In this document: positions 12,435 to 64,000 of the stretch, piece after piece
Numbering within the stretch: the stretch's first letter is position 1
Layout: the number at the start of each line of letters is the position of its first letter
Origin: Takakia lepidozioides
Lineage: Eukaryota > Plantae > Bryophyta
Assembly: GCA_030704615.1 (NCBI GenBank)
Contig: CM060731.1
Span: 63,736,001 to 63,800,000 of the forward strand
Reading direction: 5' to 3'
Length of the DNA stretch: 64,000 bases
Notes under the pieces: model-generated
Told to the model about the DNA's origin: nothing
The model's input: the letters and a program-made list of their open reading frames with translations, nothing else
Database searches by the model: none
Position numbers and translations under genes: made by a program

Positions 12435-12442
12435 AAACCCTA
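12435..12442 (+). promoter_or_regulatory. Telo-box (AAACCCTA) in the SKIP promoter/5' UTR
   Basis: Exact motif ~230 bp upstream of the ATG; function inferred. Confidence 0.35.
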
Positions 12443-12667
12443 GGTATTGTGGAATTGAGCGGTGAGAGAGGGAGGAGGGGACATTGGGAGGTTGGGGTCT
12501 GAGTTGTGGTGCGTTTGTGTGATGAATTTTTGAGAGGCACGCTGTGAGGGTTGCTGTTCCTTAGATATTGGGTTGCTATCGCTTTGTCGCTGATCCTCGT
12601 TAGTTTGCAACACGGGCTTGTCGTCAGAGAGGCAGTTCAGAGGAGGGTTTGGTTTGGTTTTGTAAGC

Positions 12668-15941: not shown

Positions 15942-17530
15942 TGTGAAGGATTCCTCTTGTTGTCGACACTTGAGGTACATCGCCGTACCTAGCGTGCTCT
16001 GCGCGGCCGTGCCGTCCCGGGATTCTGAATATTGGGATGGGCGCTTCACCGCCCGGCCCAGCTTTTCCGTGCGACCCCCTGTAGGTCTCAAAGTGCGCAT
16101 TATCATTTCTAGAATCTGGTAGTGAGTCTATGTTGCTACTACTGACGCTATTTTTTCTACAGTTGATTGATCTCTCTGATTTAAGTACTTGAGGGCACCG
16201 ATATGCGCCATGATTGTTCGGTGTCTAGCATTTGCTACGACGGAATAGTCTGAACCACCCTCTGGATCAGATATAACTGTTTTTTGTAAACAGTCTTTTG
16301 GTTGGGCGGTATAAGCATCCCGTTTCGAATTGCTGAGTGGAGCTGGCTCCGAGCAATTAAGAAATCCTCCCTAGGAAGTTGATGTAGTCTCTCCAAGACT
16401 ACTATCCGTGGGGGACTCAAGTTTTGTATAGATACCTTGGACTTGCGAGAATTTAAATGCTCCATTCGCATAAGCTTCATCTCACTCTCAATTTTTTGGA
16501 TACGACTGTTCTTGAGATCCATGGCTAACTCCATGTCATGCAGCTGTTGTTGAGTCATCATTCTGTTGTCTTTGCTGTCGAGCATGCCTTCTAGTTGTGT
16601 GATCCGCTGCTCTCGCTCACCCAAAGTTTGAGACAAAAAGCAGTTGGCCTTTGTAAGCGCATCTTGTGCCTTAGTCAGCTCTAACTCTCGTAATTTAAAA
16701 CTTACAATTTGTCCGCTTTATGGGGGTACCTTGGTACCAGCTATAACGTTAATTCGTACTTCGTACATGGACGCATACGTATACGTCTCATATTTGCAGG
16801 AGAGGAGGGTTCAGGGTTTTGTCGTGGGCCATCTGTGTCTCTCTCCTTCTCTCACTCTCTTAAGACCTATGTCTCTGTCTCTGTCTCCCTGTTCAAATTG
16901 TATTCTACTCTAAGAAGAAGCCTCTCCAGCCAATTGTATTCTACAGTGAGAGAGAAGCATTTTGGGGTTCTTGGTACGACGAGCTTGTGGGAGCAATGGC
17001 GTCCCGGCTGAAGTAATGTCTACCATCTTGGAAAGCAATAGCTGGGGGACGAGGGATATGGTGGGAAGTCTCCATGGTGGTGGTAGTAGGAGTTCGATTG
17101 GCACACAAGCGGCTTCATGCAGTCCCGATCCTCTGTCGAATCAGGGTGGGGGTGAAGACTTTGCCAGAAAAATTCTATCAGAAATGCGAGGGCGGAGAGG
17201 GCAAGAGGTAGGGACAACAAAGTCCATACTTCTGGATTGATCACGGTACCCACCCCCGCCACGCTTTTCTTCTGTGGTTCAGGTCCCAAGCATTGTTTCC
17301 TGGTTTTGTTCGAGTTTCATTTCCGTTGACCACTGTTCTGAACTTTGTTAATATGGGATGTGTTAGCAGTCATCAGCAACTAGCGGGCAGGGGGCCTCAC
17401 AGCAGGGCACTGGCAGCAGCTACCTCGCGCAGTTGACCATGCGAGGCCTGAAAGCCAGAGATGCCGGCTTACGAACTCCCGGGGCCGACTCTGCTTCACG
17501 ACTTCAATCACCATGTATGTAACATCTCTG
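15942..17530. mobile_element. Possible solo LTR or other insertion (~1.6 kb)
   Basis: Starts TGTGAAGG with a GC-rich shift, flanked by direct repeat ttgta(tgtg) at 15937 and 17531; the 3' end is not canonical CA. Contains an antisense coiled-coil-like ORF (16235-16636). Confidence 0.35.
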
Positions 17531-39706: not shown

Positions 39707-42307
39707 TCACCAGTAATCCCTGCAAGAACAAACCCCGTTTTGGAAGTGGTGAAAGCGGTTGGCATCCCGTACAACAATTGCTCGCCCAACTATCTTTGAG
39801 ATAAACTTGGTAGCCGTGTGGCAGTCACCACACACTCGAAGGTTCTTGATAATTCGGATAGGAGTACCAGGGGATGTGCTGATGAGCCCAAAACCAATCG
39901 CCAGCTTCTCACTGTGGTGGCAAAGAGAAAATTCCTTTTGCTTCTCCTCCACATCATGCAATACGAAGTGAATGTCAGGCACGTACCCGGCCTCCTTCAT
40001 CTGCCCATACAAGCTCTCCAGCACAGCATGTATTTCCTCTATCTGTGGATGTGATGTGTCATCTACAACAAACGTATGGACTTGATTGTCAACCTCAATG
40101 CAAGAGCCACCTGGCTCCTTTCTGATCCTTCTCTTCTTCATCATGTTCCTAACCCTTGCAGCATCCTCCCACCTGCCAGCCGCCGCATAGATGTTTGATA
40201 GCAGCACATAAGTAGCAGCATGCTGAGGATCCCACTTGAGAAGCCATTTTGCTGCACGTTCTGCCAGCTTTACATTGCCATGTATTCTGCAGGCCCCAAG
40301 CAAGGCCCCCCACACTGCAGCACCTGGTTCAATTGGCATTATATTGATGAATTCTTCTGCCTCATCCAAGTGACTTGCACGGCCAAGAAGGTCCACTATG
40401 CAGCCAAAATGCTCTACCGTAGGAGTGAGATCATAATCCCTACTCATGGAATAAAAGTAGTGACAGCCTTCATCCACTAGGCCCACATGGCTACATGCAG
40501 AGAGAATGCATACAAAGGTGATACCATCCGGCTTCAAGCCTTCCTCCAGCATTTGTTTGAATAGTTGTAGGGCCTCCATGGCACACCCATGCTGAGCATA
40601 TCCTGCAATCATCCCGTTCCATGAAACCAGATCTCGCGTAGCCATATCCTCAAACACCTGACGTGCCTCTGTTATGTTCCCACATTTGGCCAACATGTTG
40701 ACAAGGGCAGTCTCCAGAATGACATCTAGCACAATTTCAGCTTTGATGATGTCAGCATAGACCTCTCTGCCTCTATGGAAGGATGCCAGGCTGGCACACG
40801 CATTGAGAACACAAACAAATGTGACCTGTTTGGGCATTGTGCCTTCCCATATCATATTCTCGTAGGTGTCAAAAGCCTCCTTACCACACCCTTGTTGAGC
40901 ATAACCTGCAAGCATTGCATTCCATGTCACCACGTTTGGCTTCACGCCTTCCTGTTTCATCCGTTCAAGTAGTCTCAGGGCCTCACTACCACCCCCGTGC
41001 TGAGCATATCCTGTTATCATCACATTCCATGAAATCACATCTCGCCGAGTCATATAGTCAAACATTTGACGTGCTTTGCTTATGTTCCCACATTTGGCAT
41101 ACATATTGACCAGTGTATTCTCCAGAATAATATCTGGAACAATCCCCACTTCCACGATGTGATTGTGGACCTCTATACCTTTTCCCAGAGTTGCCAGACT
41201 GGAACAGGCATTGAGAGAAGAAATGAAGGTGACCCTATTGGGTGTCACCCCATCTCTTATCATTTGCTCGTACATCTCAAAAGCCTCCCTACCATACCCA
41301 TGCTGAGCATATCCTGTGATCATCACACTCCATGAAACCACATTTCGTTGAGCCATACTATCAAACATCGACCGTGCTTTGTTTATGCTCCCACATTTCG
41401 CATACATATTAACAAGGGCAGTAGCCAGTGCAATATCTGGAACAATTCCAGCTTTGACAATGTCACCATGGACCTCTATGCCCTTATCCAGGGCTACAAG
41501 GCTGGCACATGCACTCAGAACACAAATGAACGTGACCTTGTTGGGGGCAAACCCTTCCCATATCATTCGCTTGTACATCTTAAGCGCCTCCTTACCAAAT
41601 CCACTCTGAGCATATCCTGTGATCATGGCATTCCATGACACCACACTGGGCTTCCAGCCTTCCTTTTGCATCTGTCCAAATAGGTGCAGGGCCTCCATGA
41701 CACATCCATGCTGAGCATATCCTGCAATGATTGCACTCCATGAGACCAGATTTCTCTCAGCCATCTTATCGAACACTTGACGGGCATCACGTATGCTCCC
41801 GCACTTGGCATACATGTTAACAAGGGCTGTCTCCAGCATGATATCTGGGGCAATACCAGCCTTGATGATATCAACATGTACCTCTTTGCCCTTTTCCAGG
41901 ACTGCCAGGCTGGCACATGCCTTGAGCATACAAATGAATGTGACCCTGTTGGGCACCAATCCTTCCCATATCAATTGCTCATAGATCTCAAAGGCATCCC
42001 TGCCATAACCATGCTTAGCATAACCTGCAATCATTATATTCCAGGTACATATATCTCGCTCGGGCATTTTGTTAAACACTAGGCGTGCATCCAGCATTTT
42101 CCTGCACTTGGTATACATGTTGAGGAGGGTGTTATGCTGGAAGATGTCTGGCTTGAATCCAGTTTGGATAATGTGGGCGTGCAGCTCCTTTCCCTGTGCT
42201 AGTCTTTCCATATTGATGCACTCTTTCAAGAGACAAACGTAAGTTTTGGAGTCTGCTGGAATGCCTCCATGATACAATATGTGTAGTGCCTCTTCGCAGA
42301 CAGAATA
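39707..42307 (-). CDS. PLS-class pentatricopeptide repeat protein with E and DYW deaminase domains (organellar C-to-U editing factor type); N-terminus disrupted
   Basis: 856-codon open frame of P-L-S repeats, PG box (KEPGGSCIEV), HSEKLA, LRVCGDCH, ending CSCRDYW*. An in-frame TGA lies at 42308-42310 and the first in-frame ATG is at 42211. Confidence 0.93.
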   Translation of the reverse strand, partial: YSVCEEALHILYHGGIPADSKTYVCLLKECINMERLAQGKELHAHIIQTGFKPDIFQHNTLLNMYTKCRKMLDARLVFNKMPERDICTWNIMIAGYAKHGYGRDAFEIYEQLIWEGLVPNRVTFICMLKACASLAVLEKGKEVHVDIIKAGIAPDIMLETALVNMYAKCGSIRDARQVFDKMAERNLVSWSAIIAGYAQHGCVMEALHLFGQMQKEGWKPSVVSWNAMITGYAQSGFGKEALKMYKRMIWEGFAPNKVTFICVLSACASLVALDKGIEVHGDIVKAGIVPDIALATALVNMYAKCGSINKARSMFDSMAQRNVVSWSVMITGYAQHGYGREAFEMYEQMIRDGVTPNRVTFISSLNACSSLATLGKGIEVHNHIVEVGIVPDIILENTLVNMYAKCGNISKARQMFDYMTRRDVISWNVMITGYAQHGGGSEALRLLERMKQEGVKPNVVTWNAMLAGYAQQGCGKEAFDTYENMIWEGTMPKQVTFVCVLNACASLASFHRGREVYADIIKAEIVLDVILETALVNMLAKCGNITEARQVFEDMATRDLVSWNGMIAGYAQHGCAMEALQLFKQMLEEGLKPDGITFVCILSACSHVGLVDEGCHYFYSMSRDYDLTPTVEHFGCIVDLLGRASHLDEAEEFINIMPIEPGAAVWGALLGACRIHGNVKLAERAAKWLLKWDPQHAATYVLLSNIYAAAGRWEDAARVRNMMKKRRIRKEPGGSCIEVDNQVHTFVVDDTSHPQIEEIHAVLESLYGQMKEAGYVPDIHFVLHDVEEKQKEFSLCHHSEKLAIGFGLISTSPGTPIRIIKNLRVCGDCHTATKFISKIVGRAIVVRDANRFHHFQNGVCSCRDYW

Positions 42308-46185: not shown

Positions 46186-46610
46186 GTTTTGCATTGAAAA
46201 AGACTTGGTGATATGGCCACAAACCTATGCAGCGGTGGGTTTCGCATTGAGAAACCCTTACTGGTATTTGAGAAAGACTTGGTGATATGGCCACAAAAGC
46301 GGTGGGTTTCGCATTGAGAAACCTTGACTAGTATTTGAGAAAGATTTGGTGATATGGCCACAAACCTATGCAGCGGTGGGTTTCGCATTGAGAAACCCTT
46401 ACTGTATTTGCGAAAGACTTGGTGATATGGGCACAAACCTGTGCAACAGTGGGTTTCGCATTGAGAAACCATGAGACCCATGGTGCAACGTTTTGCATTT
46501 CATTTCATTACTAAAGATGTCCACTTTCCTTACTGGTATTTGAGAAAGACTTGGTCATATAGGCACAAACCTATGCAGCGGTGCGTTTTGCATTGAGAAA
46601 CCCTTACTAA
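46186..46610. repeat. Tandem minisatellite, ~60-75 bp unit, about 5-6 copies
   Basis: gtttcgcattgagaaacccttactggtatttgagaaagacttggtgatatggccacaaacctatgcagcggtgg repeated. Confidence 0.88.
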
Positions 46611-46761
46611 TATAGCTTGAGTCGAAACTTTCTATACGATATCCCATCACCCAACAATCCCACATCCAATTCAGGCCGGTTGGTACAAAGTTTCGCCGCG
46701 CGAAATTACCCTTGAGTACGATTTCTTCTCAGGCCTATTATGGAGAAAAAGCCACGTCGTC

Positions 46762-49700
46762 AGTACCAGCCCCAAGTGTAATATCTTTTGCAATCTGTAT
46801 GACTAGCAGCTTTGGAGCAATGTTCTAATCATCTTTATGCTTTTACTATGATGTAGATGCAGCCAGCCTACTAATTAACACCCAGTTCCACGTAATCGGA
46901 TTGTCTTCACGACCGTAATTTGAAGCCCCGAGCACGAAAAGTTGGGCCGAGTCTCATTTACCAAGGTGTTCGCTAAAGTCGTCATGACTAGTCCAGTGCG
47001 GAGCCACGCGAAGCCATATCATATTTTGTAGTATAATGATTGTAACAAGGAAATGTCGTTGCCTCAGGGACCTATGGTACGTGACTACTCCAGGCTTGTG
47101 GGTTTGGAATTCAAACCTCGTACCATATCACCGGGATAGATGTGATATTTTCTTCTTATAATTGTTGTACCATACCACAAAGATAAAGAAAATTTCATAT
47201 GGTACGTGTACATATCAAAGTCACAAAGGAGGATAAATAAATGTAGATGTCCGCCCATTAATGAATACTTCTAAAATTGATTTTGGTTTTGTGGTGAGCA
47301 CGTTTCAATTCATGTATTACGATGTTATATATGGCTAACAGCTGATGATGAATACTCATTTCCAAACTTTTTACTTTTTATCTATTTTTTGTACACTCTA
47401 GAATATAGATATATTAATTGATTACAAATATACATCGATGAACTCTATAATAGATAGAGTTTGTAAGAATAGGAAGACTGATCTTACAAACCAAGCGTAA
47501 CTTATGAGGCCCTTTTATCCCCCGAGGACCACCATGTTTAACTTTGAATCCAACACATTTTCTTCGATATTGTTCACTGAAGTACTCGTCAAGTTCGGCT
47601 AGCACATTTTGTGGTACAATAACTGTAATAAGCAAAGGTCATTGTTTGGGTGGTATGATATGTTACTCGACGATATGTCTTACCATATCACCAAGATAAA
47701 GACATTTTCTTCCATAATTATTGTACCATACCACCAAGGTAAAGAAAATTTTCATATCAAGTACACACTAGGGTAGCCTGTGCCATTGGCCCAAGTGCAA
47801 TCTCCTATGTATGCAAGTGCGTCTTCTATGTCGAGGCCCAAGTGCGACCTCATCTAAGTCCAAATGCATTTATTTTCCACAGAGCCTACGACCAGACTTC
47901 AACCGGAGACCTTTCCCTTGATATCTCTCCTCTCGAGGCTCCAACCATTGTCCCATGAATTCCCATTTTGCTATTTTTTGGGAGTTTCCAGCGACCCAAA
48001 GTACTTAAAATTCCAAATCTCCCACGTGAAGGGCCAATCACTGCTCCATGAAAGTCCATTTTGCTATTTTTTCCGAATTTCCACGGCCCAAAGTACTAAA
48101 AATTCCACATCTCCCACACCGCGGGTCCAAAAATCATGAGACTAAGCCGGTGCACCCCTCTTCATCGAGGGCTTTCCAACGGCACCAAGCACCAGGGCTG
48201 GGGCCTGCGGTTTGGGAGATCTCAACTACGCTACAAACAAAAACAAACAAAACAAAACAAAACATCTCAATTCATATATTGATTGGCAAAGTCACGGAGG
48301 AAGATGAAATGACGAGGATGGGAATGAAACGATGGCTGAATGAGCATAAATAAATGGAAAAATGTATGTTTGTCGTTCTCTTTTGGATGAAAGGACGCGT
48401 ATCGCAGAGTTCTTGAGAAATAGACCTCAAAAAACAGAAAAAACAGACAACTTCCCGAACAGTCACGTAGGCTAGTACCTTTCTCGTGCTCGGAACTATT
48501 CGCATTGAAGTTGCCCAGTCAAATCTTGGCCATATTCTTGTTTTCTCTTGTTTGACAGGCTCTTTGAGCTCTCGGCTGCAATCGCAGTATGTTGTGCTAG
48601 AACACGTCACATATTGGATTCTTTGGTGGTCGTCTATGAGCTCTGTTTAGCCACCTCTCATCTTCTAATATTCTTGAATGTTTGCAGGTGGTTTATTGAG
48701 AGTGCATTAGGACTGTGGATACACTCAAATTGAACTTTGAATCCATCACATTCTCTTGGATATTGTTCACTAAAATCGTCATGACTAGGAGGCCGGAGCC
48801 ACGCGAAGCCATAACATATTTTGTAGTACAATAATTGTAAAGAAAGGTGGCAACGTCTTGGTGACCCATGATACGTGACTAGTCCACAACCTATGGGTTT
48901 GGGAATTCAAACCTCGTACCATCTCACCGAGACGTTGACGCTTTTTTCTTATAATTGTTGTACCATACCACCAAGATAAAGAAAATTTCATAATGTGTAA
49001 ACATCAAAGTCACGGAGGAGGATAGTTCATAGATGTAGATGCCCGCCCATTGACAAATAGCCAATTCTATCCAGTAATCAGATTGTACCCTTCATGTGAC
49101 CGTTTGAAGCCCTAAGCATGAAAATTTGGACCGGGTCTCATTTATCAAAGTGGGTTGGTACCCAAAACTAGTTTTGTACACAACGTTATATATAGCTTTG
49201 TATTTGCTAGCGTTGTTTGGCAAATTATACACATCCACAACTTCTATAATAGATAGACTAAAAAAATACGGCCACCACATGGAGTCCACAAACCAAACAA
49301 ATTCCCATTCATCCCTAGAGGAATTCAGAGCAAAACAACATAAAACTTTATTGTGAAGGTCTTATTATGTGCATCTTGTGTAGTGGTACGCCTGAAACAT
49401 ATATACATCTTTCTTCTACACCTGCTTTTGTTGGATGATTAGTTGACATTAATACATGAAGGTGTCTAAGAAGATTGTAGGCTGAAAATTGGCATCCGCG
49501 CTTTGAAAAACGGTCAGTCGATCTGTTATGGAGGCTTCTGTAAAGTGTCGATGTCAGCTCGGGGGATCCACTTCCAAAAATTACCACCTAACGTGCAAAA
49601 AAATATTAGGTGTCATATATTCTGTACAAGTAAAAATTAGAACATTTTTCAGAGTAATATTGGGTATGAGAAATATAGGCGGGATCATTTAAATGAATAT

Positions 49701-52059
49701 AGGGTAGAGGTTAAAGGCTCCAATTACATTTTATTTATAATTACTCATAGGGTGGAGGTATTTTTGAAAGACATTTGTTAAGCAGGGTCTAAGCATGGTA
49801 GAGGTAGGCCAAAAAATACTATCACATACGAGTTTTCATAGACTGAGGTCTTCAAACTACTAGAGTGAAATTTAGGCTCGTATTGAACTTCTTCTTAAAT
49901 TGCTTTGGAGAGAATGATGATGTTGTAAGGAAAACAGACTAGTTTCTCAATCTTCAAATGGGTGTGTAACTATGACTTACGATAGATGTCAGAATGTATA
50001 CATCCTCGCTGATGTCGATAGTGACGCTCTAGATGAGTTCAAGTTTCTAGCAAGTAATGATATATAAAATGTAAATTTGTATGAAAATATAAAACGCAAG
50101 TTTTTGCTTTGTAAATTTAAAAAAAAATTGTATTAATATAGCATATTAAATATTCATGGTTGCCAAATATTTAAAAAAAATAGCCTACTGAAAACAATTA
50201 TATAATTATAGGGTGAAGAAAAAATAAAAATAAATTGAATGGATACCCCCCAGGAAAATACCATTTTATCTCACGTGTCTACCAAAATGATCAGGAGTGG
50301 CCCTCCCCAGGATGTATGATGCTATCCCATTTTGGTTACCATCGATCCTTTTCAAAGTAAGTGAAGTTCTCGATCTGTTTTAATTTTGTATTCCCTGCCC
50401 AAAGTCTCTTTTTTCGTCCCCTGAATCATTAGTACCAGCCACATGTGTAATATCTTTTGCAATTTGTATGACTAGCAGCTTTGGAGCAATGTTGTAATCA
50501 TCTTTATGCTTTTACTATGATGTAGATGTAGCCAGCCTACTACTTAACACCCAGTTCCACGTAATCGGATTGCCTTCACGACCGTAATTTGAAGCCCTGA
50601 GCACGAAAAGTTGGGCCGAGTCTCTTTTTACCAAGGTATTCGCTGAAGTCGTCATGACTAGTCCAGTGCGAAGCCACGTGAAGTCATATCATATTTTGTA
50701 GTATAATGATTGTAACAAGGAAATGTCATTGCCTCGGTGACCTATGGTACGTGACTACTCCACGGCCTGTGGGTTTGAGAATTCAAACCTCGTACCATAT
50801 CACCGGGACAGATGTGATATTTTCTTCTTAATTGTTGTATCATACCACGAAGATAAAGAAAATTTCATATTGTACGTGTACACATCAAAGTCACGAAGGA
50901 GGATGAAATAGATGTAGATGCCCGCCCATTAATGAACACCCAGTTCCATCTAGTGATCAGATTGTACTCTTCATGTGACCGACATTTGAAGCCACAAGCA
51001 TAAAAACATGGACGGGGTCTCATTTATTAGGGTGGGCTGGCACCCAAAACTAGCTTTGTAAAAGGGTCGGTATCTCACATATGGTACTACTATTACTTTA
51101 TTTTTCCATATACTAATCAAATATGATAGTTTGTAGAGCATGTTTAAGTGTATAGTAAAGGGAAAACAAAGTAAACTACGTGTGATTGGACAGGAAGAAT
51201 TATTATAAATGCTCATGAAGGCATATTCAATGCAAAATCGTTAGAATACTTCTAAAAATGATTTTGGTTTCGTGGTGAGCACGTTTAAATTCATGCATTA
51301 CGATGTTGTATATGGCTAACAGCTAATGATGAATACTCCTTTCCAAACTTTTTGCTTTTTATCTATTTTTTGTACACTCTAAAATATAGATCTATTAATT
51401 TCTTACAAATATACGTCGAAGAACTTTATAATAGATAGAGTTTGTAAGAATAGGAAGACTGATTTTGCAAACCAAGCGTAATTTATGGGGCCCTTTTATC
51501 CCCCGAGGACCACCATGTTGAACTTTGAATCCAACACATTTTCTTAGATATTGTTCACTGAAGTACTCGTCTCTAGGATCAGTGCGGAGCAACGGGAAGC
51601 CCGGCTAGCACATTTTGTGGTACAATAATTGTAATAAAAAAATGTCATTGTTTTGGTGGTATGATAAGTTACTCGACGACATGTCTTACCATATCGCCAA
51701 GACAGTGACATTTTCTTCTCATAATTGTTGTACCATACCACCAAGGTAAAGAAAATTTTCATATCAAGTATACATTGGCAAATTCACAGAGGAGGATGAA
51801 ATGACGAGGATGGGATATGAAACGATGGCTGAATGAGCAGAAATAAAAAGGAAAAATGTATGTTTGTCATTCTTTTTTGGATGAAAGGACGCGTATCGCA
51901 GAGTTCTTGAGAAATAGACCTCAAAAACAGAAAAAACGGACAACTTCCCGAACAGTCACGTAGGCTTGTACCCTTCTCGTGCTCGGAACTACGCATTGAA
52001 GGTGCCCAGTCAAATCTTGGCCATATTCTTGTTTTCTCTTGTTTGACAGGCTCTTTGAG
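46762..52059. repeat. Duplicated AT-rich repeat block (copy A ~46762-48570, partial ~48735-49180, copy B ~50431-52059)
   Basis: Long near-identical stretches, and paired ORF-track peptides (EYFSEQY.RKCVGFKV.HGGPRGIKG.., LKEPVKQEKTRIWPRFDW..). Copy A carries an extra insertion at ~47768-48281. Confidence 0.85.
47768..47900 (-). repeat. Uninterrupted copy of the small repeat that hosts the hAT-like element at 10730-12135
   Basis: Reverse complement matches tctggtcgtaggctctgtgg...gcacttgggcctc...caggctaccctag. Confidence 0.75.
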
Positions 52060-52705
52060 TTGCACGTCGGCCATCCCCTGACTGCCACTCCGGCCTATAT
52101 GGCGCCATTTTCTCCCAAAAGTCCAGAGTAAATCCCATTGGGTATAACACACCCCACCAACAAGCACATCATAGGACATCGCGTCCGTAACAATGGCTTT
52201 AGCTCTCATGATTGAGCCATCCGTAGGATGATCTGGCTGCAATCAAATGAAGAGCTCATGGCGTGTAATCCCTCACGCCTTCTCTGAACCACCCAAAGAT
52301 GTTTTGAATTTGGAAAGGGCAAGGCTCCACGTCCGTCTTTGTAAGGCCCAAGCCTGCAATTGCTGCTCTCCCCAACATCAATGGTTGTGCTCCCGAGTCC
52401 AGCAAGACCCACAGTGGCCTATATCTCCTCCCGGTTGGGCCACCCAATTGAAACACTTCATCCTGATTGTCCACCAAGACTACCCCATGAGTCACCATGC
52501 TGCGCTCAATGGCTGACCTAGCTGGCAACTTCTACAACCTTGCAGCTGCCGCTTGCCATGGCGCAGCTGTGGCTGACTTCACCCTCGAATCCAAAGCATC
52601 CATAGACTGCACCTTATCTGCTATCTCTGCAGATAGTGTCGATGCATCACCACTCTCAGAGAGTCTAGCTGCTAGTCTGAACACAGCAGCTGGCCGAATC
52701 CCTGT
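52057..52705 (-). mobile_element. Decayed, inverted Gypsy fragment (aspartic protease region) homologous to 58330-58975
   Basis: MVTHGVVLVDNQ...YRPLWVLLDSGAQPLMLGRAAIAGLGL and QPDHPTDGSIMRAKAIVTDAMSYDVLVGG parallel the main element. Confidence 0.88.
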
Positions 52706-54303
52706 CAAGTTAAATAAGCACAGTGTGAAAACAGCTAGAATAAAACTAGTTATTTGTATTTAACACTTGGATTTAGGTCAAGTGTTAAATCAGGTGTCAA
52801 GTTTAGTTTGACACCTGGTCTGTCTTATCTTCACGAGAGCGGCAGTCGCGCGGCTCATCTCTCTCGAGTTGAGCCTGCGCGACCGAGCTCCTGCATGTGT
52901 TTAGGTTTTAGTGTGCTTATGTAGGGATACAGGTTGTTGTGGGGTGGAGTCCCCATAGCTTGGGGTGCCCCTGGCTCGACTTCAGTTTCAATGAGTGATA
53001 GCGATGGATTTCATATTTCTTGTGTTGGAAGTGTATGTCCTTTTTAGCTTGTTTATCACTCGAGAGAGATCAGCTTGCATTGTCAGTGCTAGATGTGAGT
53101 TTTTAGTTAGCACTAGTATACTTGTTTTGTTTCAAAGCTTGTTTGAGAGCTGGTGAAGTGGAGAATTATGTAATCCATATATATATCTGTCGAGAACAGA
53201 ATGCTTTGCTTTGTACAAGGTTGTTGGAAGGGGCTGAACTGAGAAGCCCATATTGTTGAAAGAAGGTATTGCTTCCCGTAATATAGGTTAACCGGTGCAT
53301 TGCCGGACACTGAAGGTCGAGCAGGTTCAATCTTCACCATGGGGGCCGGTCCAAGTACTAGTGGCATCTGAAATCACCGAGTCGAGCACAAGTAGAAGCA
53401 TGTATTGGGGCTAGTGAGGCCACGAGAATGTAGAGCAGGCGGTGACAGTGTGCGGAACTGCTACCTGGGCATCGTGTTGGATTGCACGTCATCAGCCAAT
53501 GCGTGCAGATGTCGATTGTACTTATTGGTGATGTAATGCGTCAACTCTTGAGCAATATCATTTCACTGGGACGTCTCTATCACTGCGATTTTCTTGTGGA
53601 AACAGGGTAGAGCTTTGTATTATTCTGATTTTCACTGCATCGGGTGTATCATTCGGGGAAGCTGGAAGATTCCCGCCCTTCTTCATGCCTGCTAGGCTCA
53701 GGGTGGAAGGTTCAAACTACTGCGGGCTACTGATCTGGATAGGTATACAGAGGGGCAGCGATGTAGCTCAAAGGAAAGAGGAAGCGTCGCTGGCAGTTTC
53801 ATAAGAGATCGGTGACCTGCATTTTATTTCAGGGCAGACATGACTTATCCATTGGAGCTTGGTAACCTATGCAACTGCCAGAGCAGGAAGCGGTGCCGGC
53901 TTTGTCTTGATGAATCCGACTCGAGAATCGCTGGAAGATAAGCTTACAGGGAGGTAATGCTGAGGCTGTGGGCAAGGAGATGGCGAACGCTGTGAATAGT
54001 ATGTGACTGGATCAACTCGGTTGGTATCTTAGTAAATTGATTAGCAGCAAGGTGTAAAGATAAGGGATAGTCAGTGAGTGGATGGGCAGACTGTGCTGCT
54101 CCAGGGTAGCAAGCGGTGCTGCACTGCTTGATACTCTGCATAAAAAAGGGTCTTGAATGCAAAGGTACCCAACCAAGGAAGCCAGCCAGTTGGGTTAACA
54201 ATTACTCCCAAATGTACCGTGCGAGAATACAATTTCCAGGGTCGCTCCAGATACGTTGGGAACTGGTCTGAATTCTTTGTGAGTTGGGTTGTTTCCACCG
54301 AAG

Positions 54304-54550
54304 GCGGAGTTGATCGGATATTCGGCAGGTGAGACTAGTCTGTTCCTGGTTTACGAGTTGGTTGAGAAGGGAGCTCTCACCGATCGTCTTCATAACGCTG
54401 CTGCAAATGGGCATCGGCCATTACCGTGGTCAGGCAGAGTGCAGATAGCCTTGGATGTAGCGAGGGGGCTGGAGTACATCCACGATTACACCAAGGCCCA
54501 CTATGTCCACCGTGATGTCAATTCTGCTCGATGGCCTCTTCCGTGCTAAG
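54304..54550 (+). pseudogene. LysM receptor-like kinase (LYK-type) kinase-domain exon fragment
   Basis: [29 protein letters not shown]...[34 protein letters not shown], then a small deletion, then [10 protein letters not shown]|GT. Confidence 0.75.
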
Positions 54551-56415
54551 GTGTTCATCTGACACAATGTGAGAGGGAGGGGGCAGGGTGGGGGGCTAGC
54601 TAAGAAGACATGATCAGTACAAACGACCGAAGCAGTTGCTTGAAGGGGCTCCATTGATTGAACAAATCACGCAGTTAAGACAGGATCTTGGGCATTAGGC
54701 CATCGCTGTTTGGAGTGGTATTCGTGACGCTTGGCACCAGACTGCGAAGTTTTCTTTCCTACACCGACCAGTAGCAAATCCCCGACTCCCAGTTTTAAAG
54801 CTCCTGCATATGTAGAGATCCGTCCTCGGAATTACGGGTATTCGCATGAAACATGTAGGGTACGCCAAAAATACTTGTATTTATTGAAATACATTTGGAG
54901 CTTTGCTTTGATCCAATTTAAATTATACAGAGCCTGTTTTTGCCATAACTTGGTCATACAAAGGCTGTTTGACCTCAAATTTGCACAGGGACCTACAGAA
55001 AGGGGAAATCTACCTATCTAAACCTGGTTTCTGTTTTGGGACTCTGCTAAAAATCTATGGAATTTTTAGAGTGTGAGTGTGCCATGAAATATCCACAATC
55101 CTGTTTCTAGAACCTGTGCTGGTCTATATGAGAGACAAACCTTGGATGTACTCCTGTATGGCTGGGGGAAATGAGGACGTAATTGAAGGGCAGGTCTCTC
55201 TCTTAGCCTGTGCACACAAGGGGACAGGATTATGTTTCCCAAGGAACTCAGACTGATTTGAGTGGAGAACAGTTGGACGAGTTGATTGCATACTGGGAGT
55301 CAGGCATTAGCAGTAGACAACAGACTGCTGTAGTTGGCATTGAGGGCCTCAATATCGCCTTGGACAGTCAGAACTCTGTTGGAGCCAGTTCTGCAGCTGT
55401 AGGTGAAATACCAAAGTGGGTGAAAGCTAGGCTTGGAACACAGCCAAAGACAGCCCGGGACCAAGGTGTTCAGCCACAAGGCCGTGGTGTACTGGAGCAG
55501 AGGAGCAGGAGCTGCACAAGTTTGTGCAATTAGACAGTGTTGCAGCGGACACGCTCTGCACAAGGCAACCACGAGCGGGGGTTCATTAGCAGGACAAGTT
55601 TGTTCTGTTTGAAGGCGATGCAGTCATTCGCAATGAGACACCCGCAACCGTCTCAAAGCTTTCGAGTTGAGAGACTATCAGACCCTACCTTTGTTTTCTT
55701 TAGTGTTCAGTGAGCGGAGATAGCAGAGTGTTGCTTTGTCTCTACCTGGCAGAAAGAGGAGGAGGGTTGGTTAGAGCGAGCTACTGTAGCTTGGGACAAG
55801 GTTAGTGGCAGGTTTCTGGACATAGATATACCTCCTACACCTTACCATCAAGCAGAGCGAGGCACTTTGAGAGAAGTCTGGAAGTTGATAGCATAGATCA
55901 GGATTAGATCTTGCTTGGGCGGGCTTCTATTCTTCCCCTCCATCTCTGTACTATTTTCATTACCTTGTACTTGTAGTTGCCAAAGCCTCTCTTGGTGGAG
56001 GCCAGTCAGTCCGGGGTTTTGGGCTGGGATATTCTGCAGGATCAGCATTGCAGCTGGATTTTGGTGTGGGGGTGTTGATGTTTTGATTTCTTGTGTTTGG
56101 ATCCCCCCCAACACCTGCATGCTTGACTGTGCGCCATGTTGGTTTTGTGTGGGCGCTTGCTTTCATAGGGATTAGGCCGGATTTGATCACCGGTCAATCC
56201 TAGAGTATGCTGTCGGTGGTGAGGCTGGAGTGATGACCAGCAAGACCACCAGTGTTTCTTCTATGGTGAGGCTGGGTTGATGACCAGCCAACCATAGGAG
56301 TTCTTGCGGTGGATGCAGGTGCAGGTGCCCTGAGCCATTGGGATATGACCCTTAGACTGCAACAGGTGCCCACCCGTGTCACTATTAGATTAGTACTAGA
56401 GCCTTATAGTGTCAC

Positions 56416-58330
56416 GTGGAGGAGGTGCACATTGTGAGTGTCATTACGGAGTTACCCAAGGGTTTTGAGGGGAGTACGGCTACAGGCAGTAACAGTGAGA
56501 GTGGGTTCACAAGACGAGGTATTCGGTTCAGACCACCTTCACCGCCACCCTCAATTACTGTAGAGTCAGACACAGACTCGGAGGCTTCATCAACAGGTGT
56601 GCACTTTCATTCGCCATTGTTGTGGGACGACATGGAGGAGATGTATGGAGCTACCAAGGGGCCTCGTAGGTACTCTGGAGCTGTGGGCACAATCGAGTTG
56701 GATGACTTTATCCAGGAGTTCGACAGCTGGTGTGATTTGCAGCAGATGCGCAATCCACATCTATTCACCCCATTCATGGCGTGGAAGGGACTGTTCCAGC
56801 ATTTGGAAGGCCCGCCTATGGACGATTACCACGAGTTCAGGCGAGGACATGAAGCAGAGATTGAGGAGTGGAGGATGTATTGGTCACCTGACTACATCTC
56901 CATTACTCGAGGCACGACGCGACCAGTAGCTGCATCAGTACCAATAGCTCCCACTGCCAGCACTAGTAGTGGAGCAGTAGTGCTGGTACTTCTGCAGGTG
57001 GTACCAGTTCAAAGGTACTACTACTACTCCTCCTGCCACACTACAACACATGTGCCTAGATTCAACCCGGTGGTGGAGTTCTTCCAGGAGTTGCGGAGGA
57101 ACTACCAAGGTGTACGGACAGAGAAGCTGCGAAGTTTGCAAGACTTCCAGCGCAACCCAGTGAGAGCCTGCGAGAGGCGTACACTCGTATGAGGCGCTTG
57201 ATAAGTGTGACCCAAGGGGTTACTGAAGCTCAGGCAATCCAGTTTTGGTATGGAATTCTGGACAAGGAGCTCAAGAGAAGGGTGCGAGATGCAACCCTGT
57301 TACAAGCAGCCCAACCCACATTAGCAGATGTGTTTCTGCTGGCTGAGCGGATTGAGCTCAACATGGTGGAGGAGCGAGTTGTTACAATTGGATTTGGCAA
57401 GGACATGCCTGTACGGGGCACAGCTGTCAGCCCACAAGCACAAGGGACTGCCCAACAGCGTGGTCAGGGGGCAAGGTTGCCCAGCCCAAGTTCCATGGAG
57501 CTTACAGGGGACCTCAGGTGCAGAGGCCCGTGGCATCTTTTGCAGGCCAACAGCAACCAGGGGTGATATGTTGGACATGTGGAGGACCCCATGTCAAGAG
57601 AGATTGCCCAGAGAGTGGCAGAAGGCCGGCACAAGCACAGCCTGCACAGTTGCAGTGTGGGCATTGTGGCAAGTATGGGCATGGAGATGCCCAGTGTTAT
57701 GACTTGCATCCTGAGTTGCGCCCAGGCCAGTTCCAAGGGAACAATGGTGGCCGGGGGCGAGGTGGACCAGCCCAAAGAGGACGAGGTGGTCGGGCACGAG
57801 GTGCAGGCCAAGGGCAAGCTCCACATGGCCAAGGACGCGGAGGTCAGGGTGTTGACCAAGGCATGGCCAATCGGCTTCAGCAGCTAGAGCAGAGGCTCGC
57901 TGCCATGGCTATAGCTCAGGCGGGGCTCCCAGGCGGGATGGTCCACCTCCTGCTCCTGAGGGAGGATATGGGAGGCATGGGATTCATGTGCGGAGCAGCA
58001 CTACCACTAGAGCAGGTGGAGTCTGCTGCAGCCGTGACTCGAGGAGCAGCACGAGTTCCTGAGCCACGAGGTGCAGAGGTGGAGTTGGATCCACAACGTG
58101 GGGAGGCAAGCCGTCAGGAGGCTGCCTCAGTCATTCACCTTGGCGGAGACAGTGTCAACGCCATCCATGGCACCTAGTTCTCGCCCGACTGTTACCGAGG
58201 CGGAGGTTACTATGCCATTGGGGAGAGCTACACGTGCAGCACTGACGGCTAGTGCAGCCGGTGTGTTATTGGGGGCAGCCACCTCTGTGTGTCAAGCCCC
58301 ACTGTTCTCGGCAACCATGATTGCGACGCC
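56416..58330 (+). pseudogene. gag: Gag with two zinc knuckles and an RG-rich region
   Basis: RYSG..ELDDFIQEFDSWCD; FQRNPSESLREAYTRMRRL (across a frameshift); CWTCGGPHVKRDC and CGHCGKYGHGDAQC. Confidence 0.8.
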
Positions 58331-58532
58331 GGGGTGAGACCAGCTGCAGTGTTCAGACTAGCAGCAACACTCTGTGAGAGTGGGAGGTCACTTCATCTTC
58401 TGCGGAGTTAGTGGAAGGTGTAGTGGCAGAGGGATCCTCGGATTTGAGGGTCAAGACTGCCACGGCAGCGCCCTGGCAAGCTGCAGCTGCCAGATTGACG
58501 GAGCTGCCAGCTAGGCCAGCCTTGAGCGCGCC

Positions 58533-59000
58533 ATGGTGACACCTGGAGTTGTCTTGTTAGACAACCAGGGAGGCATTTTCACTTTGAGTGGACCGGCAGG
58601 CAAGAAGTACCGGCCACTGCGGGTCTTGTTGGACTCAGGAGCTCAGCCACTGATGTTGGGCAGAGCTGCTATTGCAGGTTTGGGCCTCATGGAGGCGGAT
58701 ATGGAGCCTTGTCCTTTCCAGATACAGACATCTCTGGGAGGATCAGAGCAGGCTCGCGGCATGACACGGCATCAGTTGGCTATTAGACTGCAGCCGGATC
58801 ATCCTGTAGATGGCTCAGTGATGCGAGCCAAGGCCATTGTGACAGACGCGGTCTCTTACGATGTCCTCGTTGGTGGGGCAGTGTTATACCCCATGGGCTT
58901 CACCCTGGATTTCTGGGAGGAGTCAGCATCCTACAGGCCTGGATGGCAGTCAGGGGATGGTCGCCGTGCACAGCTCCCTGTGACATTCATTGGGGGTATT
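58533..59000 (+). CDS. Retrotransposon aspartic protease domain
   Basis: VLLDSGA catalytic motif and YDVLVGG. Confidence 0.88.
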
Positions 59001-59345
59001 GCAGCTGCCCAGCGGGGCAAGATGCCAACACTAGCCGCCTTCACAGCTGCAGTTAGTTGGCCTGGAGAGTTGCTGGAAGGCAATGCCCATGCAGAGGATG
59101 TGCCACCTCCAGCAGAGCAGGATGACATGCATGGTACGGCGGAGTTGCCTGCCATGGTTGCTCACACTCCGTTGTGGGGTACGAGCAAGGATTTGCAGCA
59201 AGCTGCTGATGGACGGGTGCAACAAGCTTGGGTAGAAGCTTTTGTACCGTCAGGAGAGGAGGAGAGTGCGGTGATTGCACCAGGGCCACCTCAGTTGTCG
59301 CCATTGGACACCACACCTCTTGTGTGGCAGCGGCCGGATGAAGGC

Positions 59346-60283
59346 ATTTGCCTTCTGGACTTGTTTGGCGGGATCAGCACCGGATTGGCTGCTGTGCTAG
59401 GCAGGTGTGCGGGTAAGGCGTTACCTGTATGTGGAGAGGGATGAGACTGCACGACGCGTCTCACTGCGCCATGTTGCTCAGTGGTGCAGCAGCACCCTGA
59501 GTTGTTGCCGGTGTCTGCAGTTCGTGGATATCAACAGGCCTTGCCAGCAGACATTTCGTTGCTGGGGGCGCAGGATTTGGAGCGGTTGGCTCCATTGATC
59601 TGGTAGTGGCAGGTTGGCCCTGCCAAGGGCATTCATCAGCCGGGCATGGCAATGGATTGCGAGACTCGAGGACGGGTCTGTTTTGGGAGATGGTGCGGAT
59701 TTTGCGCCACTTGCAGCTTCATCAGGCTGTATCTCCGGCATACATCTTGGAGAATGTGCCACTGATGGGTGATTCTCGGGCCAGGGTGATGGCCAGTGTG
59801 CATCAAGTCCGGTCGTGGCTTGGGTCAGCAGTATTGCTGGATGCAGCTGCAGTGGGGTCACGGGCTCATCGTCCACGACTATGGTGGACTAACTTGATGC
59901 CACCCGCACTGCTCAAGCGTGCATTTGATGGGGTGCAGCGGCCAGCACACCTCACCGTGGATGGCATTTTGGACACAGGAAGGCAGTCTCAACGTGTGAG
60001 ACACGATGACCGTTCGCCTTTGGCAGTGGTCAACAGGTGGGTCAACCACGAGCAGCATTACCTACACTGCTCAGCTTCCCAGGATCCCATGCTTTTCGGG
60101 ATGGTGGACCTGGCCTCCTGTGGGATGCTCAGTTGCAGCAGTTAGTGGAGCCTAATGCCGACGAGCGAGAGCGGGCTATGGGGTTTTCCACTGGGACCAC
60201 GGCGGTGCCTTCTCTTTCTGAGGCATCACGTCGTCAGGTGTTGGGGCAAGCAATGGATCTCAATTGCTTGACCTGGATTGTCA
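59346..60283 (+). CDS. C5-cytosine DNA methyltransferase domain within the pol polyprotein (4 small frameshifts)
   Basis: Motif I LLDLFGGISTG; II YLYVERD; III DISLL; IV IDLVVAGWPCQGHS; LFWEMVRIL; VI YILENV; VIII RAHRPRLWWTN; IX ERERAMGF; X RRQVLGQAM, in canonical order. Confidence 0.9.
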
Positions 60284-60742
60284 GCTTGGCTATGGCTGAG
60301 CAACGTAGAGTGCGGAGTGCACTTCCCTTGATGGTCTCTCTGCCTACCGAGACGGTACAGGCAGCGAGTGGGGGCGAGCCGGTGAGGACCACGAGGTGTA
60401 GACATCCATGGCACATGTGGGGTGCTCGAGGTTCAGAGGGAGTTGGCAGCGAAGGCAGCTGTGATGGATGAGGTTGGGGATTCTTCTCGGGATGAGGAGG
60501 TTCTCAATGATGATGATGGGGCAGGATGAGGCCTTGTCATTGACTGAGCAGGAAGGGGGTACTGCTCAAGGGTTGCAGCATAGCAACCACGGGACGCGTC
60601 CTCTACCTCTAAGCCCACTGGACTTAAGGTTGCAGTTACGGAGGACAATTGGGAGCCTGACATTGGACCCATTGTCACCGGAGGAGAGAGACGACGTATA
60701 CGGCGGTTCCTGAGGGCTTACAGGAATTGCTTTGCCTTCAGT

Positions 60743-62270
60743 TTGAAGGACTTGGGAGCACTGAAGGGTCAAGAGATCCGTATTGAGTTGGCCACTGACA
60801 CGCCAATCTTTCGGAGACCCTATAGATACAGTGACATGGAGAGGTCTTTGATTCAGATGAGGACTCAAGATCTCTGGGAGGCAGGTTTGGTGGAGCTCTC
60901 TGGTGGAGAGTATGCTTCAGCCACAGTGATGCCAGCTAAGAAGGATGTCTATGGCAATTGGACGGAGAGACGTATGTGCGGTGATTACCGGCCTGTAAAT
61001 CGTCAGACCAAGTCCGATAGGTATGCCATGCCAACACCAGAGGAGATCTTTGATGCCATTGGGCATTCCAAGGTCTTTAGCACGTTGGATTTACGATCCG
61101 GATATCACCAGTTGCCGATCAAGGAGGCGGATAAGCAAAAGACGGCATTCTGGGGGATCAATGAGCACGGGAAGGATTGCCTATACCAGTGGCGGTTCTT
61201 ACCATTTGGGCTTAAAAACGCTCCCGCTGAGTTTCAAAGAGTCATGGACAGGATTCTAGCAGGGGTGGAGTTTGCTCGGTGCTACATAGATGACATCATC
61301 ATCTTTAGTGCTACGGTGGAGGAGCATGAGAGACACCTTCAGGGGGTATTTGAGCGCTTGAGGACGCACGGATTGAAGTTACATCCGGGCAAGTGCAAGT
61401 TTTTCCACAACCAGATTGAGTATCTGGGTCACATGATATATCCTGGAGGATTGGGGGTACAGCAGACTAAGGTAGAGTCCATTGCACAGGTTCCACGCCC
61501 CACGGATGTGAGCCGAGTTCGAGCTTTCATGGGGTTAGCAAACTATTACAGACGGTTTGTTAAGGGATTTAGTGCCATTGCAAAGGCTCTAACCAAGCTG
61601 ACCAAGGTGGACCAGGAGTGGCAGTGGGAAGATGAGCAAGAACAAGCTTTTCAAGAGCTCAAGGCGAGGTTGACCTCGGCGCCCATCTTGAGACGACCTA
61701 TCAGGGGGCGTCCTTTTCAGCTGCATACAGATTGGAGCATGCTGGGGCTTGGAGCGGTGCTCACACAGGTGGATGATGAGGGAAGAGAGTTCGTAGTGGC
61801 TTATGCTAGCCGCTCGAACAATGCTGCAGAGTCTAAGTATAGCTCATATGAGGGAGAATGCTTAGCTGCAGTGTGGGCCGTGGCACACTTCAGGTGCTAT
61901 CTATACGGCAATCTCTTCACCCTTGTCACGGATCACCAACCACTCAAGTGGTTGATGGAGTCAGACAAGCTTACGGGGAAGCTTGCACGGTGGGCACTCA
62001 TCCTTCAAGAGTATGACTTTCAGGTGGTGCATCGACCGGGTTTGGTCAATCGAAATGCAGATGGGTTGAGTCGCAATCCATGCACGAGCCAGCAGGATGA
62101 CACTGGAGCTCGGTGGCATGGTGAGACGGACGAGGAGATGGTGCCCGGATGGCATGCATCTGCATTTCTGTGTATCTTGGCAGCGGAAGGCCAGGTTGGA
62201 CCTACAACAGGGATGACTGTAGATCAAGTGTCTGAGGACCCTGAGGCCAGCAATGAGCAGGTGGCGCCAA
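60743..62270 (+). CDS. pol: Reverse transcriptase and RNase H
   Basis: RMCGDYR, LDLRSGYHQ, LPFGLKNAP, YIDDIII, FMGLANYYRRFV, LHTDWS, VTDHQPL. Confidence 0.97.
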
Positions 62271-62292
62271 AGATATACATGAGGATTCAGTT

Positions 62293-63500
62293 GTGTTGGA
62301 CTACCTCCGCAGTGGAGACACGGCAGCCACTATGACTGCCAAGGAGAGGGATCGGATCCTACAACGAGCCAAGAGGTTCAGGTGGGAGGGGACACACCTG
62401 CTCCGAGTGTGGGAGGATGGTCGAGTGAGGATTGTGCCTCACCCAACACAGCGGGCACGGTTAGTGCGGCATGCCCATGAGGAGTTGGGGCATTTTGGGG
62501 TGCGACGCACTCATAGTCTACTGCAGGGGCAGTATTGGTGGCGTGGTATGCACACAGAGGTGCAACAATTTGTGGCTAGGTGCATGGTGTGTGACAGGGT
62601 GCGTGCTTCATTCAACGCCCCTACTCCACAATTGCACCCTCTTCCGATCATGGGATGGGCTACAGGTGGAGTCTTGACTTCGCAGGGCCGTTGCCACTGA
62701 CCATGCGCCACAACAAGTACGTGTTGGTGATGGTGGAGCACTTCTCCAAGTGGATTGAATTGGTTCCATTGCCTGATAAGGCTAGTGAGGGAGCTGCGTA
62801 TGCATTCCTGGATTGTGTGCTTAGCCGATTCGGTGCTCCAGCTGAGGTACTCACGGACCAAGGGAGAGAGTTCTTGGGGAGTTTCAGGCTTTGTGTGACA
62901 AGGCCTTGATAGACCACCGCACCACTTCTCGGGATCATCCTGAGCCGATGGCTTGGCAGAGAGAGTTGTTCAGACAGTAAAGAGGGGTTTGCGCAAGTAT
63001 GCTTGCAGAAGGGACACCTAGGAGATTGGGACCTTCAGTTACCCTGGTTAGCCATGGGCTACAGGTTCAGCAAGCAAGCATCACTTGCCTCCTTCTCACC
63101 ATACTTTCTTCTCTTTGGCCGAGAGCCGGATTTGCCTACATCCATTCGCAGAGAAGCTGCTACAGTTCTTAACCTTGACGATCCGGACGTGTGGGCACGT
63201 GCATGTGAGCAGCGTGCAGAGTTGTTCAAGAGAGTCATGCCCATGGCTTTCGAGAACCTTGCCATTGCACAACACCGTGATACGTTGAGGTATGCTACCA
63301 TACGTGGTGGGGGCTATCGTCCTGGGGTTCGGAGATTCAACCCTGGTGACTATGTCTATCTGCAGCAGACTGCTCCTACGACCCTGGATGTGACTGCAGG
63401 ACGTGTTATTTTGAGGGTTCGAGGTCTTGCCCTCAGGCGTCTTGGTCTTGGAGGGTCGGGATGGCATAACTTGGAAGGACCATGTGCGTAATTGTGCGCC
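62293..63500 (+). CDS. Integrase (HHCC zinc finger, DDE core), frameshifted
   Basis: HEELGHFG...CMVC; WSLDFAGP; LTDQGREF; DGLAERVVQTVK; SPYFLLFGRE. Confidence 0.92.
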
Positions 63501-63564
63501 ATGTCACCTTCCGAATGTCGATGGCAGGATTGACCCAAACCTGGCAGTGGTATCTGCAGGTTTG

Positions 63565-63711
63565 AGGTGCATGTTGTGTGGGTCTGCTAAAGGGGCAGCC
63601 ACCATGCTGGTGTGTGATCGATGCTCTAGAGGTTGGCATATGGGATGCTTGACTCCACCTCTTGAGATGGTTCCGGATGGGGATTGGTTATGTCCACATT
63701 GCATTGGATAG
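63565..63711 (+). CDS. C-terminal PHD finger of the polyprotein
   Basis: C4HC3: CMLC...CDRC...WHMGC..PPL..VPDGDWLCPHC, followed by a stop codon. Confidence 0.92.
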   Translation, partial: RCMLCGSAKGAATMLVCDRCSRGWHMGCLTPPLEMVPDGDWLCPHCIG

Positions 63712-64000
63712 TGGGAGTGGATACAACCATGGAGGCTAACAAGAAACGCAAGGCCCAGCTACTAGGAGACCTTGAACACACGAGATCTTGGCTCAAGTTC
63801 ACAGATTGCAAGACGGCGACTAACGATGGGGCTACTCTTGTACCCGGCCTCTTGGTTATAGAGTTTGAGTACGATAGGGACAGTGATAGAGGACTTAGTA
63901 CGGCTGTGGCTATTACATCTTGTAGCTATCTGGAGGTAGAGGGACCTATCCACCAGCTAGGGGGCGATTGTGCTAGACTACTTTATTGTGCATATATGTG

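Follow-up and report, generated by a model that had tools for sequence, protein, structure and literature searches.

Layout of the locus and its methyltransferase domain

The window, a stretch of 64,000 nucleotides of DNA from Takakia lepidozioides, contains at its 3' end a copy of a Gypsy retrotransposon in which a cytosine DNA methyltransferase (DNMT) domain lies between protease and reverse transcriptase (RT). This copy and a second, truncated member of its family show the following features:

52054..52760, minus strand: second, truncated family remnant, linker and protease without DNMT (tblastn, nucleotide match)
55005..64000, plus strand: Gypsy retrotransposon copy (depth step, domain order); 5' edge approximate, 3' end beyond the window
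56632..58170, plus strand: gag region with two CCHC knuckles (about 57569-57705), frameshifted (tblastn, ORF translation)
58611..58990, plus strand: aspartic protease, LLDSGA, Asp at 58632 (weak PF13975/PF13650 matches under cut-off)
59346..60290, plus strand: DNMT3-type C5 cytosine methyltransferase domain, assigned from motifs, Pfam, and structure matches; four frameshifts in the assembly
60291..60580, plus strand: ORF1 tail, poorly conserved, open to the stop with X at three breaks
60581..60589, plus strand: conserved in-frame TAG, then CAACCA, matching the UAG-CAR-YYA readthrough motif
60584..62335, plus strand: RT and RNase H in a single 583-codon open frame (RVT_1 1.2e-32, RT_RNaseH 3.2e-36)
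62260..63420, plus strand: integrase (H2C2 finger and core), frameshifted (PF17921 4.5e-17, rve 1.8e-12)
63568..63702, plus strand: PHD finger 3' of the integrase (PF00628 1.4e-11)
63950..64000, plus strand: G-rich tract and probable start (about 63969) of 3' repeat B (match to L043)

The gag-protease-RT-RNase H-integrase order that marks Ty3/Gypsy elements was found in the window and in relatives of the element, and Pfam searches of the window element gave no chromodomain match. Residues 1-166 of a Marchantia ORF1 protein (P0011) matched 56632-57156 at 60% (tblastn), the CCHC knuckles were visible in the ORF at 57356-58177, and the protease was 62% identical to the protease region of P0085. 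Best solved-structure matches of the PHD finger were CHD4, PHF12, KDM5B, and KDM5A, with the PHF21A finger also close. Positions 63925-63978 matched 10192-10248 of the related locus L043, whose repeat B starts at 10238; just the start of this repeat falls inside the window. Compared with the main copy, the minus-strand remnant showed 76% nucleotide identity over 638 nt.

Immediately 5' of the element, a receptor-like kinase domain fragment (54283-54549, plus strand; PF07714, 2.7e-9) was present, which we take to be LysM-RLK-like. A PPR protein ending in DYW (39707-42307, minus strand) and LRR receptor kinase exons with an ERECTA-like look (24118-26874, minus strand) were named from their translations. 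The window also contains a 1.2-kb element whose 156-nt inverted arms are 94% alike (10831-12036) and a direct-repeat cluster with copies 3.5-4 kb apart (46186-52000). An intronless SNW/SKIP host gene (12668-14485, plus strand) was 84% identical to its counterpart in Sphagnum, 82% to those of Marchantia and a lycophyte, 76% to that of Physcomitrium, and about 70% to those of flowering plants. In a 29-row tree, it fell inside the moss clade (100/99) and outside Sphagnum plus the other mosses (94/77). Its place in the moss lineage is well supported, and an early-branching position is likely, a grade that reflects the use of one gene.

All nine C5-methyltransferase motifs that were searched for were found on the plus strand, in the expected order and via four frame changes:

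59358, plus strand: DLFGG
59431, plus strand: VERD
59541, plus strand: LPADI
59594, plus strand: IDLVV
59612, plus strand: GWPCQ, catalytic Cys codon at 59621
59750, plus strand: ENV
59870, plus strand: RPRLWW
60169, plus strand: ERAMGF
60241, plus strand: LGQAM

Motifs I, IV (Cys), VI (ENV), VIII (RxR), IX, and X were thus all present in non-permuted order. The initial annotation had described a full C5-methyltransferase at 59346..60283, continuing in frame from the protease ORF and interrupted by frameshifts near 59400, 59482, 59590, and 60037. This description was borne out: DLFGG sits in the protease-bearing open frame 58515-59444, breaks were located after about 59398, 59481, 59583, and 60034/5, and, in the HMM check proposed with it, the largest DNMT piece alone matched PF00145 (4.4e-13; 49.8 bits, cut-off 22). 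Three further frame breaks lie in the ORF1 tail, after 60420, 60511, and 60570. With X at the breaks, the domain contained zero internal stops, and the region matched six bryophyte-type relatives at 66-75% identity across 323-375 residues (E<=1e-176).

A predicted model of one relative (P0004, 75% identical), built from a 21-row alignment, reached a pLDDT of 85.9, and the Foldseek rows shown for it were all DNMT3A/B/C, with a TM of 0.83 to target. When P0004 was compared with solved structures by phmmer, DNMT3A (6e-12) preceded DRM2 (2e-4) and HhaI (4e-3); the tRNA enzyme DNMT2 was a far weaker structure match than DNMT3A/B. Consistent with the initial assignment of an intronless, non-permuted, DNMT3-like domain between protease and RT, sequence and modeled structure thus identify the domain as DNMT3-type rather than DRM, DNMT1, DNMT2, or bacterial, with methylation as its predicted activity.

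In run X1, depth increased from 10 on a unique contig ending at 55004 to 8,000-38,000 along the element. In a second run of the same sample, summed contig depth, which does not equal copy number, rose from 604 in the unique flank to 0.3-1.3 million over the element. Sequence depth on the element was about a thousandfold above that of the unique flank, and depth over the DNMT equaled that over gag and protease. These depths suggest hundreds to thousands of element copies in Takakia. Of the X1 contigs placed on the element, 47% were at least 99% alike, and the family in this moss is large and young.

At each of the four DNMT breaks and the three tail breaks, contigs from the same organism had additional letters. 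Across the DNMT frame and the RT frame (417 + 583 codons), no premature stop was encountered, and all 20 indels listed between 55000 and 64000 (with 43 more beyond these) were letters missing from the window. Run X5 was tentatively taken to be RNA and served as a source of contigs rather than as expression evidence; over 6419 nt, eight longer pieces of its contigs showed 39 substitutions and 35 gap letters relative to the window, and one piece showed 1 substitution and 6 gap letters over 2173 nt. The unique flank had no such differences from contigs. Extra letters in contigs, open frames, and gaps as common as substitutions point to assembly errors, so that the frameshifts may be errors in a young copy, with real deletions as the alternative; this pattern suggests an unpolished assembly in a high-copy repeat. 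An origin of the breaks in homopolymer runs was not supported, as 15 of 17 touch runs of at least two letters against a background of 77%, and 5/17 lie at runs of at least three against 22%.

Relatives, architectures, and selection

A search with the central DNMT piece yielded 35 longer homologous proteins. Those with a species name came from Marchantia polymorpha, Calypogeia fissa, and Sphagnum troendelagicum and were 64-71% identical, most of them 64-70%. One Marchantia cluster had 18 members, and 5 of the 15 listed were 1278-1281 residues long. The Marchantia proteins P0036, P0037, P0043, P0044, and P0011 are full-length copies of ORF1 whose genes are annotated as hypothetical or CCHC-type, and two of these five bear V-chromosome gene names. 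In a metagenome scan, 61 of 65 loci were family members, and loci of sufficient length read gag-protease-DNMT-RT-integrase-PHD. Most metagenome loci matched Sphagnum proteins up to the last ORF1 residues, and it is solely on this ORF1 match that the label 'Sphagnum-type' rests. The initial annotation had considered that other members might lack the domain; the 35 homologs and 61 loci show that its presence is not a one-off.

When 50 proteins were collected by their protease, 33 extended into the DNMT and 17 ended before it; in none of the 50 was the protease followed by RT without a DNMT between. A DNMT-less sister lineage, suggested by six of the 50, was rejected, these being truncated members of a DNMT-bearing subfamily: on the protease tree, they are interspersed among DNMT-bearing proteins (5 changes against a shuffled mean of 5.6), and their tails share 67-92% identity with the linker found in the DNMT-bearing proteins P0090/P0110.

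Both complete relatives (L043 and L051) had TG..CA ends and a 4-bp target duplication; the full elements span 1676-10805 and 7344-16558, respectively, each flanked by its duplication. Among 24 loci compared with themselves, split repeats of the form A-coding-B-A-B were complete in L043 and L051 and partial in L002 and L037. In L043, each of the repeats A and B is bounded by TG..CA ends of its own, with two-base spacers at the joints, like circle junctions, and no obvious tRNA primer site was seen 3' of repeat A.

A Klebsormidium nitens protein (P0267) was colinear with bryophyte ORF1 across protease, linker, and DNMT (30% over 572 columns, E 3e-58), and the same order was also found in Closterium. 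From these sequences, the protease-DNMT Gypsy family is seen to have relatives in liverworts, Sphagnum, and streptophyte algae. A second architecture, RT-RH-DNMT-INT-PHD, occurs among P0125-P0274 (for example P0148, P0033, and P0034) and was not met in the literature consulted on retrotransposon DNMTs; one such protein is named Scenedesmus sp. The best 150 representatives comprised 95 of the RH-DNMT-INT type, 21 of the protease-DNMT type, and 34 with DNMT alone, in a ranking biased toward DNMT-integrase proteins by integrase columns in the underlying profile. Every one of these 150 that had a second domain had retrotransposon domains. The two architectures were separated by the DNMT tree (60 rows, with 30 of 92 second-type rows used; SH-aLRT 100), with the window DNMT on the K. 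nitens side, and by the RT tree (35 rows, with 23 of 48 second-type rows used; SH-aLRT 98); both trees covered DNMT-bearing elements only, and the split alone does not establish a single origin. Motif IV mostly ends in CQG in the protease-DNMT type and in CQD in the RH-DNMT type, and in distant relatives it frequently reads WECQ in place of WPCQ.

Previously described systems share parts of this organization. KnitGypsy-Dnmt3 of K. nitens resembles the window element in its Gypsy domains, its intronless, non-permuted DNMT3, and its purifying selection, and its DIRS-like split repeats (A-coding-B-A-B) recur in L043 and L051 (PMC5890265). It differs in having an algal rather than a land-plant host, in carrying the DNMT in the Pol ORF together with RT, where the bryophyte element has a conserved stop between the two, and in being reported at few copies, in contrast to the hundreds to thousands suggested by depth in Takakia (PMC5890265). 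The colinear K. nitens protein and the split repeats indicate that the bryophyte element represents a land-plant branch of the KnitGypsy-Dnmt3 kind that differs in the stop; since its DNMT does not share one open frame with RT, it is a variant rather than a member. SymbioDIRS-Dnmt3 of Symbiodinium is likewise a retrotransposon-borne DNMT3 and methylates CG de novo in yeast, but is a DIRS element with a tyrosine recombinase, an independent capture, and a dinoflagellate host (PMC5890265). EpiLTRs/DAM-LTRs of Cymbomonas and Euglena also combine a DNA methyltransferase with a chromatin reader in LTR elements; their DNMT is sister to DNMT4, occupies the 3' end of pol or accompanies DAM and a chromodomain, and is described as distinct from streptophyte Gypsy-DNMT3 (bioRxiv 10.64898/2026.05.21.726589). 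Host DNMT3a/b of Physcomitrium provides a non-permuted DNMT3 catalytic domain in a moss, but these genes stand alone (PMC6453930), whereas the window domain forms one frame with Gag and protease and appears closer to the DNMTs of algal retrotransposons.

The literature search found no land-plant report of a DNMT-bearing Gypsy element, with subscription journals largely beyond its reach. Marchantia and Sphagnum are not mentioned in three text supplements of PMC5890265, and the accessible portions of the bryophyte methylation literature contain no mention of retrotransposon DNMT copies. A 2025 paper, whose one text supplement gave no land-plant match, and the 2026 preprint (10.64898/2026.05.21.726589) speak of 'streptophytes' in their accessible text; their supplementary trees may include bryophytes. 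PHD fingers in retrotransposons are already known (PMC6673714); the words 'methyltransferase' and 'PHD' are absent from the text of the REXdb Gypsy paper (PMC6317226). The initial statement that no land-plant family was known therefore stands insofar as none was found described, and its novelty is reduced by colinearity with KnitGypsy-Dnmt3: the class is known from an alga, and what is added is the predicted leaky stop, the amplification in a moss, and the open Marchantia copies.

Between the window and locus L002, the DNMT showed a dN of 0.21 and a dS of about 2.5 over 291 codons. With dS saturated, dN was 0.175 in RT, 0.24 in gag, and 0.33 in the protease, which places the DNMT between RT and protease. 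Of 35 common variants in the Takakia DNMT (from 40 of 42 rows listed for the stretch), 22 were synonymous, against 26% expected (p=4e-6). Neutral evolution, raised by the initial annotation as a possible objection, is not what these values show, and the DNMT domain is under purifying selection. In 40 distinct Sphagnum-type loci (of 53), omega was about 0.62 for shared variants and 0.96 for singletons in the DNMT, versus 0.41 and 0.67 in RT; these copies are decayed, and their DNMT is less constrained than RT.

The stop codon between methyltransferase and RT

The DNMT frame ends at the in-frame TAG at 60581-60583, upstream of RT. In the window, the frame is open from motif I to this TAG, with CAA CCA directly 3' of it, and an X5 contig agreed letter for letter, gaps aside, across the site. 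A TGA near 60527 was rejected as the end of ORF1, which ends at 60581. Named and unnamed ORF1 proteins stop 95-99 residues past motif X.

DNMT and RT shared a frame in 23 of 30 examined loci, and each of these 23 had a stop at the homologous position; the remaining seven carried a one-base indel. In the 23 same-frame loci, the DNMT-RT spacer measured 291, 333, or 414 nt, and ORF1 tails of relatives were 81, 95, and 118 codons long. From 41 junctions, three duplicates were dropped; of the 38 distinct junctions, which are not independent and derive from four lineages only, 34 read stop (TAG or TAA)-CAA-YY exactly 16 codons 5' of the RT anchor, two were one transition off, and two were disrupted. 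The stop was present in the window and in all four lineages. TAA variants were spread across the tree (8 changes against a shuffled mean of 8.1), which marks them as decay; TAA as an inherited alternative stop was not supported. Several algal-type relatives (P0084, P0139, and P0256) had no stop at the homologous place.

Type I stop-codon readthrough in tobamoviruses, benyviruses, and pomoviruses uses the motif UAG-CAR-YYA (PMC3542737). The window, L017, and L056 share this signal at all six positions of CAR-YYA, and the commonest junction lineage, with CAACCC, matches five of six; CARYYA makes up 0.3% of hexamers in the window element. In contrast to the viral cases, the signal stands here between Gag-protease-DNMT and RT of a retrotransposon and is predicted from sequence. 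The same readthrough signal serves the env-like gene of SIRE1. Relative to simple shuffles, RNA structure after the stop had a z of -0.8 in the window and of -2.9 and -3.4 in two relatives.

Past the stop, the first in-frame Met is codon 85 in the window and codon 48 in L017, both inside RT, which makes re-initiation unlikely there. An ATG shortly past the stop, at which re-initiation might occur, was found in the Sphagnum type only.

The conserved position of the stop indicates that the DNMT ends ORF1 together with Gag and protease and would likely be made at Gag level, contrary to the initial proposal that the enzyme is processed from pol. It is predicted with considerable confidence that TAG-CAACCA is read through by a minority of ribosomes; the DNMT would then enter the particle in many copies.

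Proposed role of the enzyme and alternative explanations

In the proposed mechanism, most ribosomes would stop at the TAG and produce Gag-protease-DNMT, and a minority would read on into RT-RNase H-integrase-PHD. The DNMT would then be a bulk particle protein, present in many copies per particle and released by the element's protease. On the model of the active SymbioDIRS-Dnmt3 enzymes, the DNMT would more likely than not methylate newly made cDNA, probably at CG, inside the particle or the integration complex, and the copy would arrive pre-marked. The PHD fingers of CHD4, PHF12, KDM5, and PHF21A read unmethylated H3K4. From its resemblance to these, the chances appear even that the PHD finger of the element steers integration to silent chromatin with unmethylated H3K4. 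As a whole, the combination of a Gypsy element, an ORF1-terminal DNMT3, readthrough, cDNA methylation, and PHD-guided insertion is the best explanation, held with moderate confidence. A more speculative extension, which we regard as doubtful, would be a lineage as old as green plants with DNMT3 in two fixed positions, whose land-plant branch uses the leaky stop and packaged self-methylation and which, with roughly a thousand young copies in this moss, would also be a source of de novo methylation for the host.

The enzyme might instead act mainly after integration or in trans, on resident copies, their flanks, or host DNA, and thereby limit or shape the element. Synthesis at Gag level would far exceed the need of one cDNA per particle, and Physcomitrium DNMT3b is reported to carry out CHH methylation of heterochromatin (PMC6453930). 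Decayed copies are heavy in CG and CHG transitions (0.19 at CG, 0.22 at CHG, and 0.06 at CHH), a pattern that host MET1 and CMT would however also give. The domain moreover lacks a reader domain of its own, and selection on a trans-acting enzyme would be harder to sustain than on one acting in cis. Action mainly in trans is therefore considered unlikely.

Expression of RT-integrase from a spliced RNA, as in Ogre-like elements, would make the TAG the AG of a 3' splice site and might skip the DNMT. Since the TAA variants represent scattered decay, they are compatible with an ancestral AG that served as splice acceptor; Sphagnum-type copies have a T-run 5' of the stop, and predicted introns connect upstream sequence to RT in three Marchantia gene models. 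The T-run is, however, missing in the window and L017, the three models use three different junctions, none of them at the stop, and among the contigs no joint was listed at the stop site. Splicing would also not demand that ORF1 stay in frame to the exact TAG in four lineages with differing tail lengths, and the conservation 3' of the stop fits CAR-YYA. Splicing at the TAG is accordingly given a low probability, and readthrough remains the preferred reading of the stop.

It is also improbable, to a similar degree, that the domain is retained as a particle module for nucleic-acid binding or RNA modification, with DNA methylation not its selected role. The Klebsormidium enzyme produced no methylation in yeast, a result its authors called inconclusive and obtained in an assay in which human DNMT3B failed too (PMC5890265). 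WECQ replaces WPCQ in many distant relatives, whereas the window and its bryophyte relatives preserve all of the SAM-binding, Cys, ENV, and RxR motifs, and the nearest structures are the DNA enzymes DNMT3A/B, with the tRNA enzyme DNMT2 far behind. CpG depletion, as a footprint of self-methylation, was not seen: observed/expected CpG was 0.43-0.59 from gag to integrase, like the window average of 0.54, and its absence would suit a non-methylating module. That a host DNMT3 retrocopy was captured just once, or that the assembly is chimeric, as the many frameshifts in the window copy might suggest, can be dismissed almost entirely given the same arrangement in 61 metagenome loci and in named bryophyte and algal proteins, the equal depth of DNMT, gag, and protease, and the like splits of the RT and DNMT trees.

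The role of retrotransposon-borne methyltransferases has been open since 2018, with hosts that are hard to work with and a Klebsormidium enzyme that was silent in yeast. Marchantia polymorpha, a genetic model with methylation mutants, contains open Gag-protease-DNMT frames of 1278-1281 residues, and these make the role of the enzyme directly testable. The Marchantia methylome paper counts, in its accessible text, five methyltransferase genes, none of them retrotransposon-borne (PMC5784723), and bryophyte methyltransferase inventories may be incomplete. The leaky stop, if it operates as proposed, predicts a Gag-level enzyme dose, which would separate marking of the cDNA from action on the host genome.
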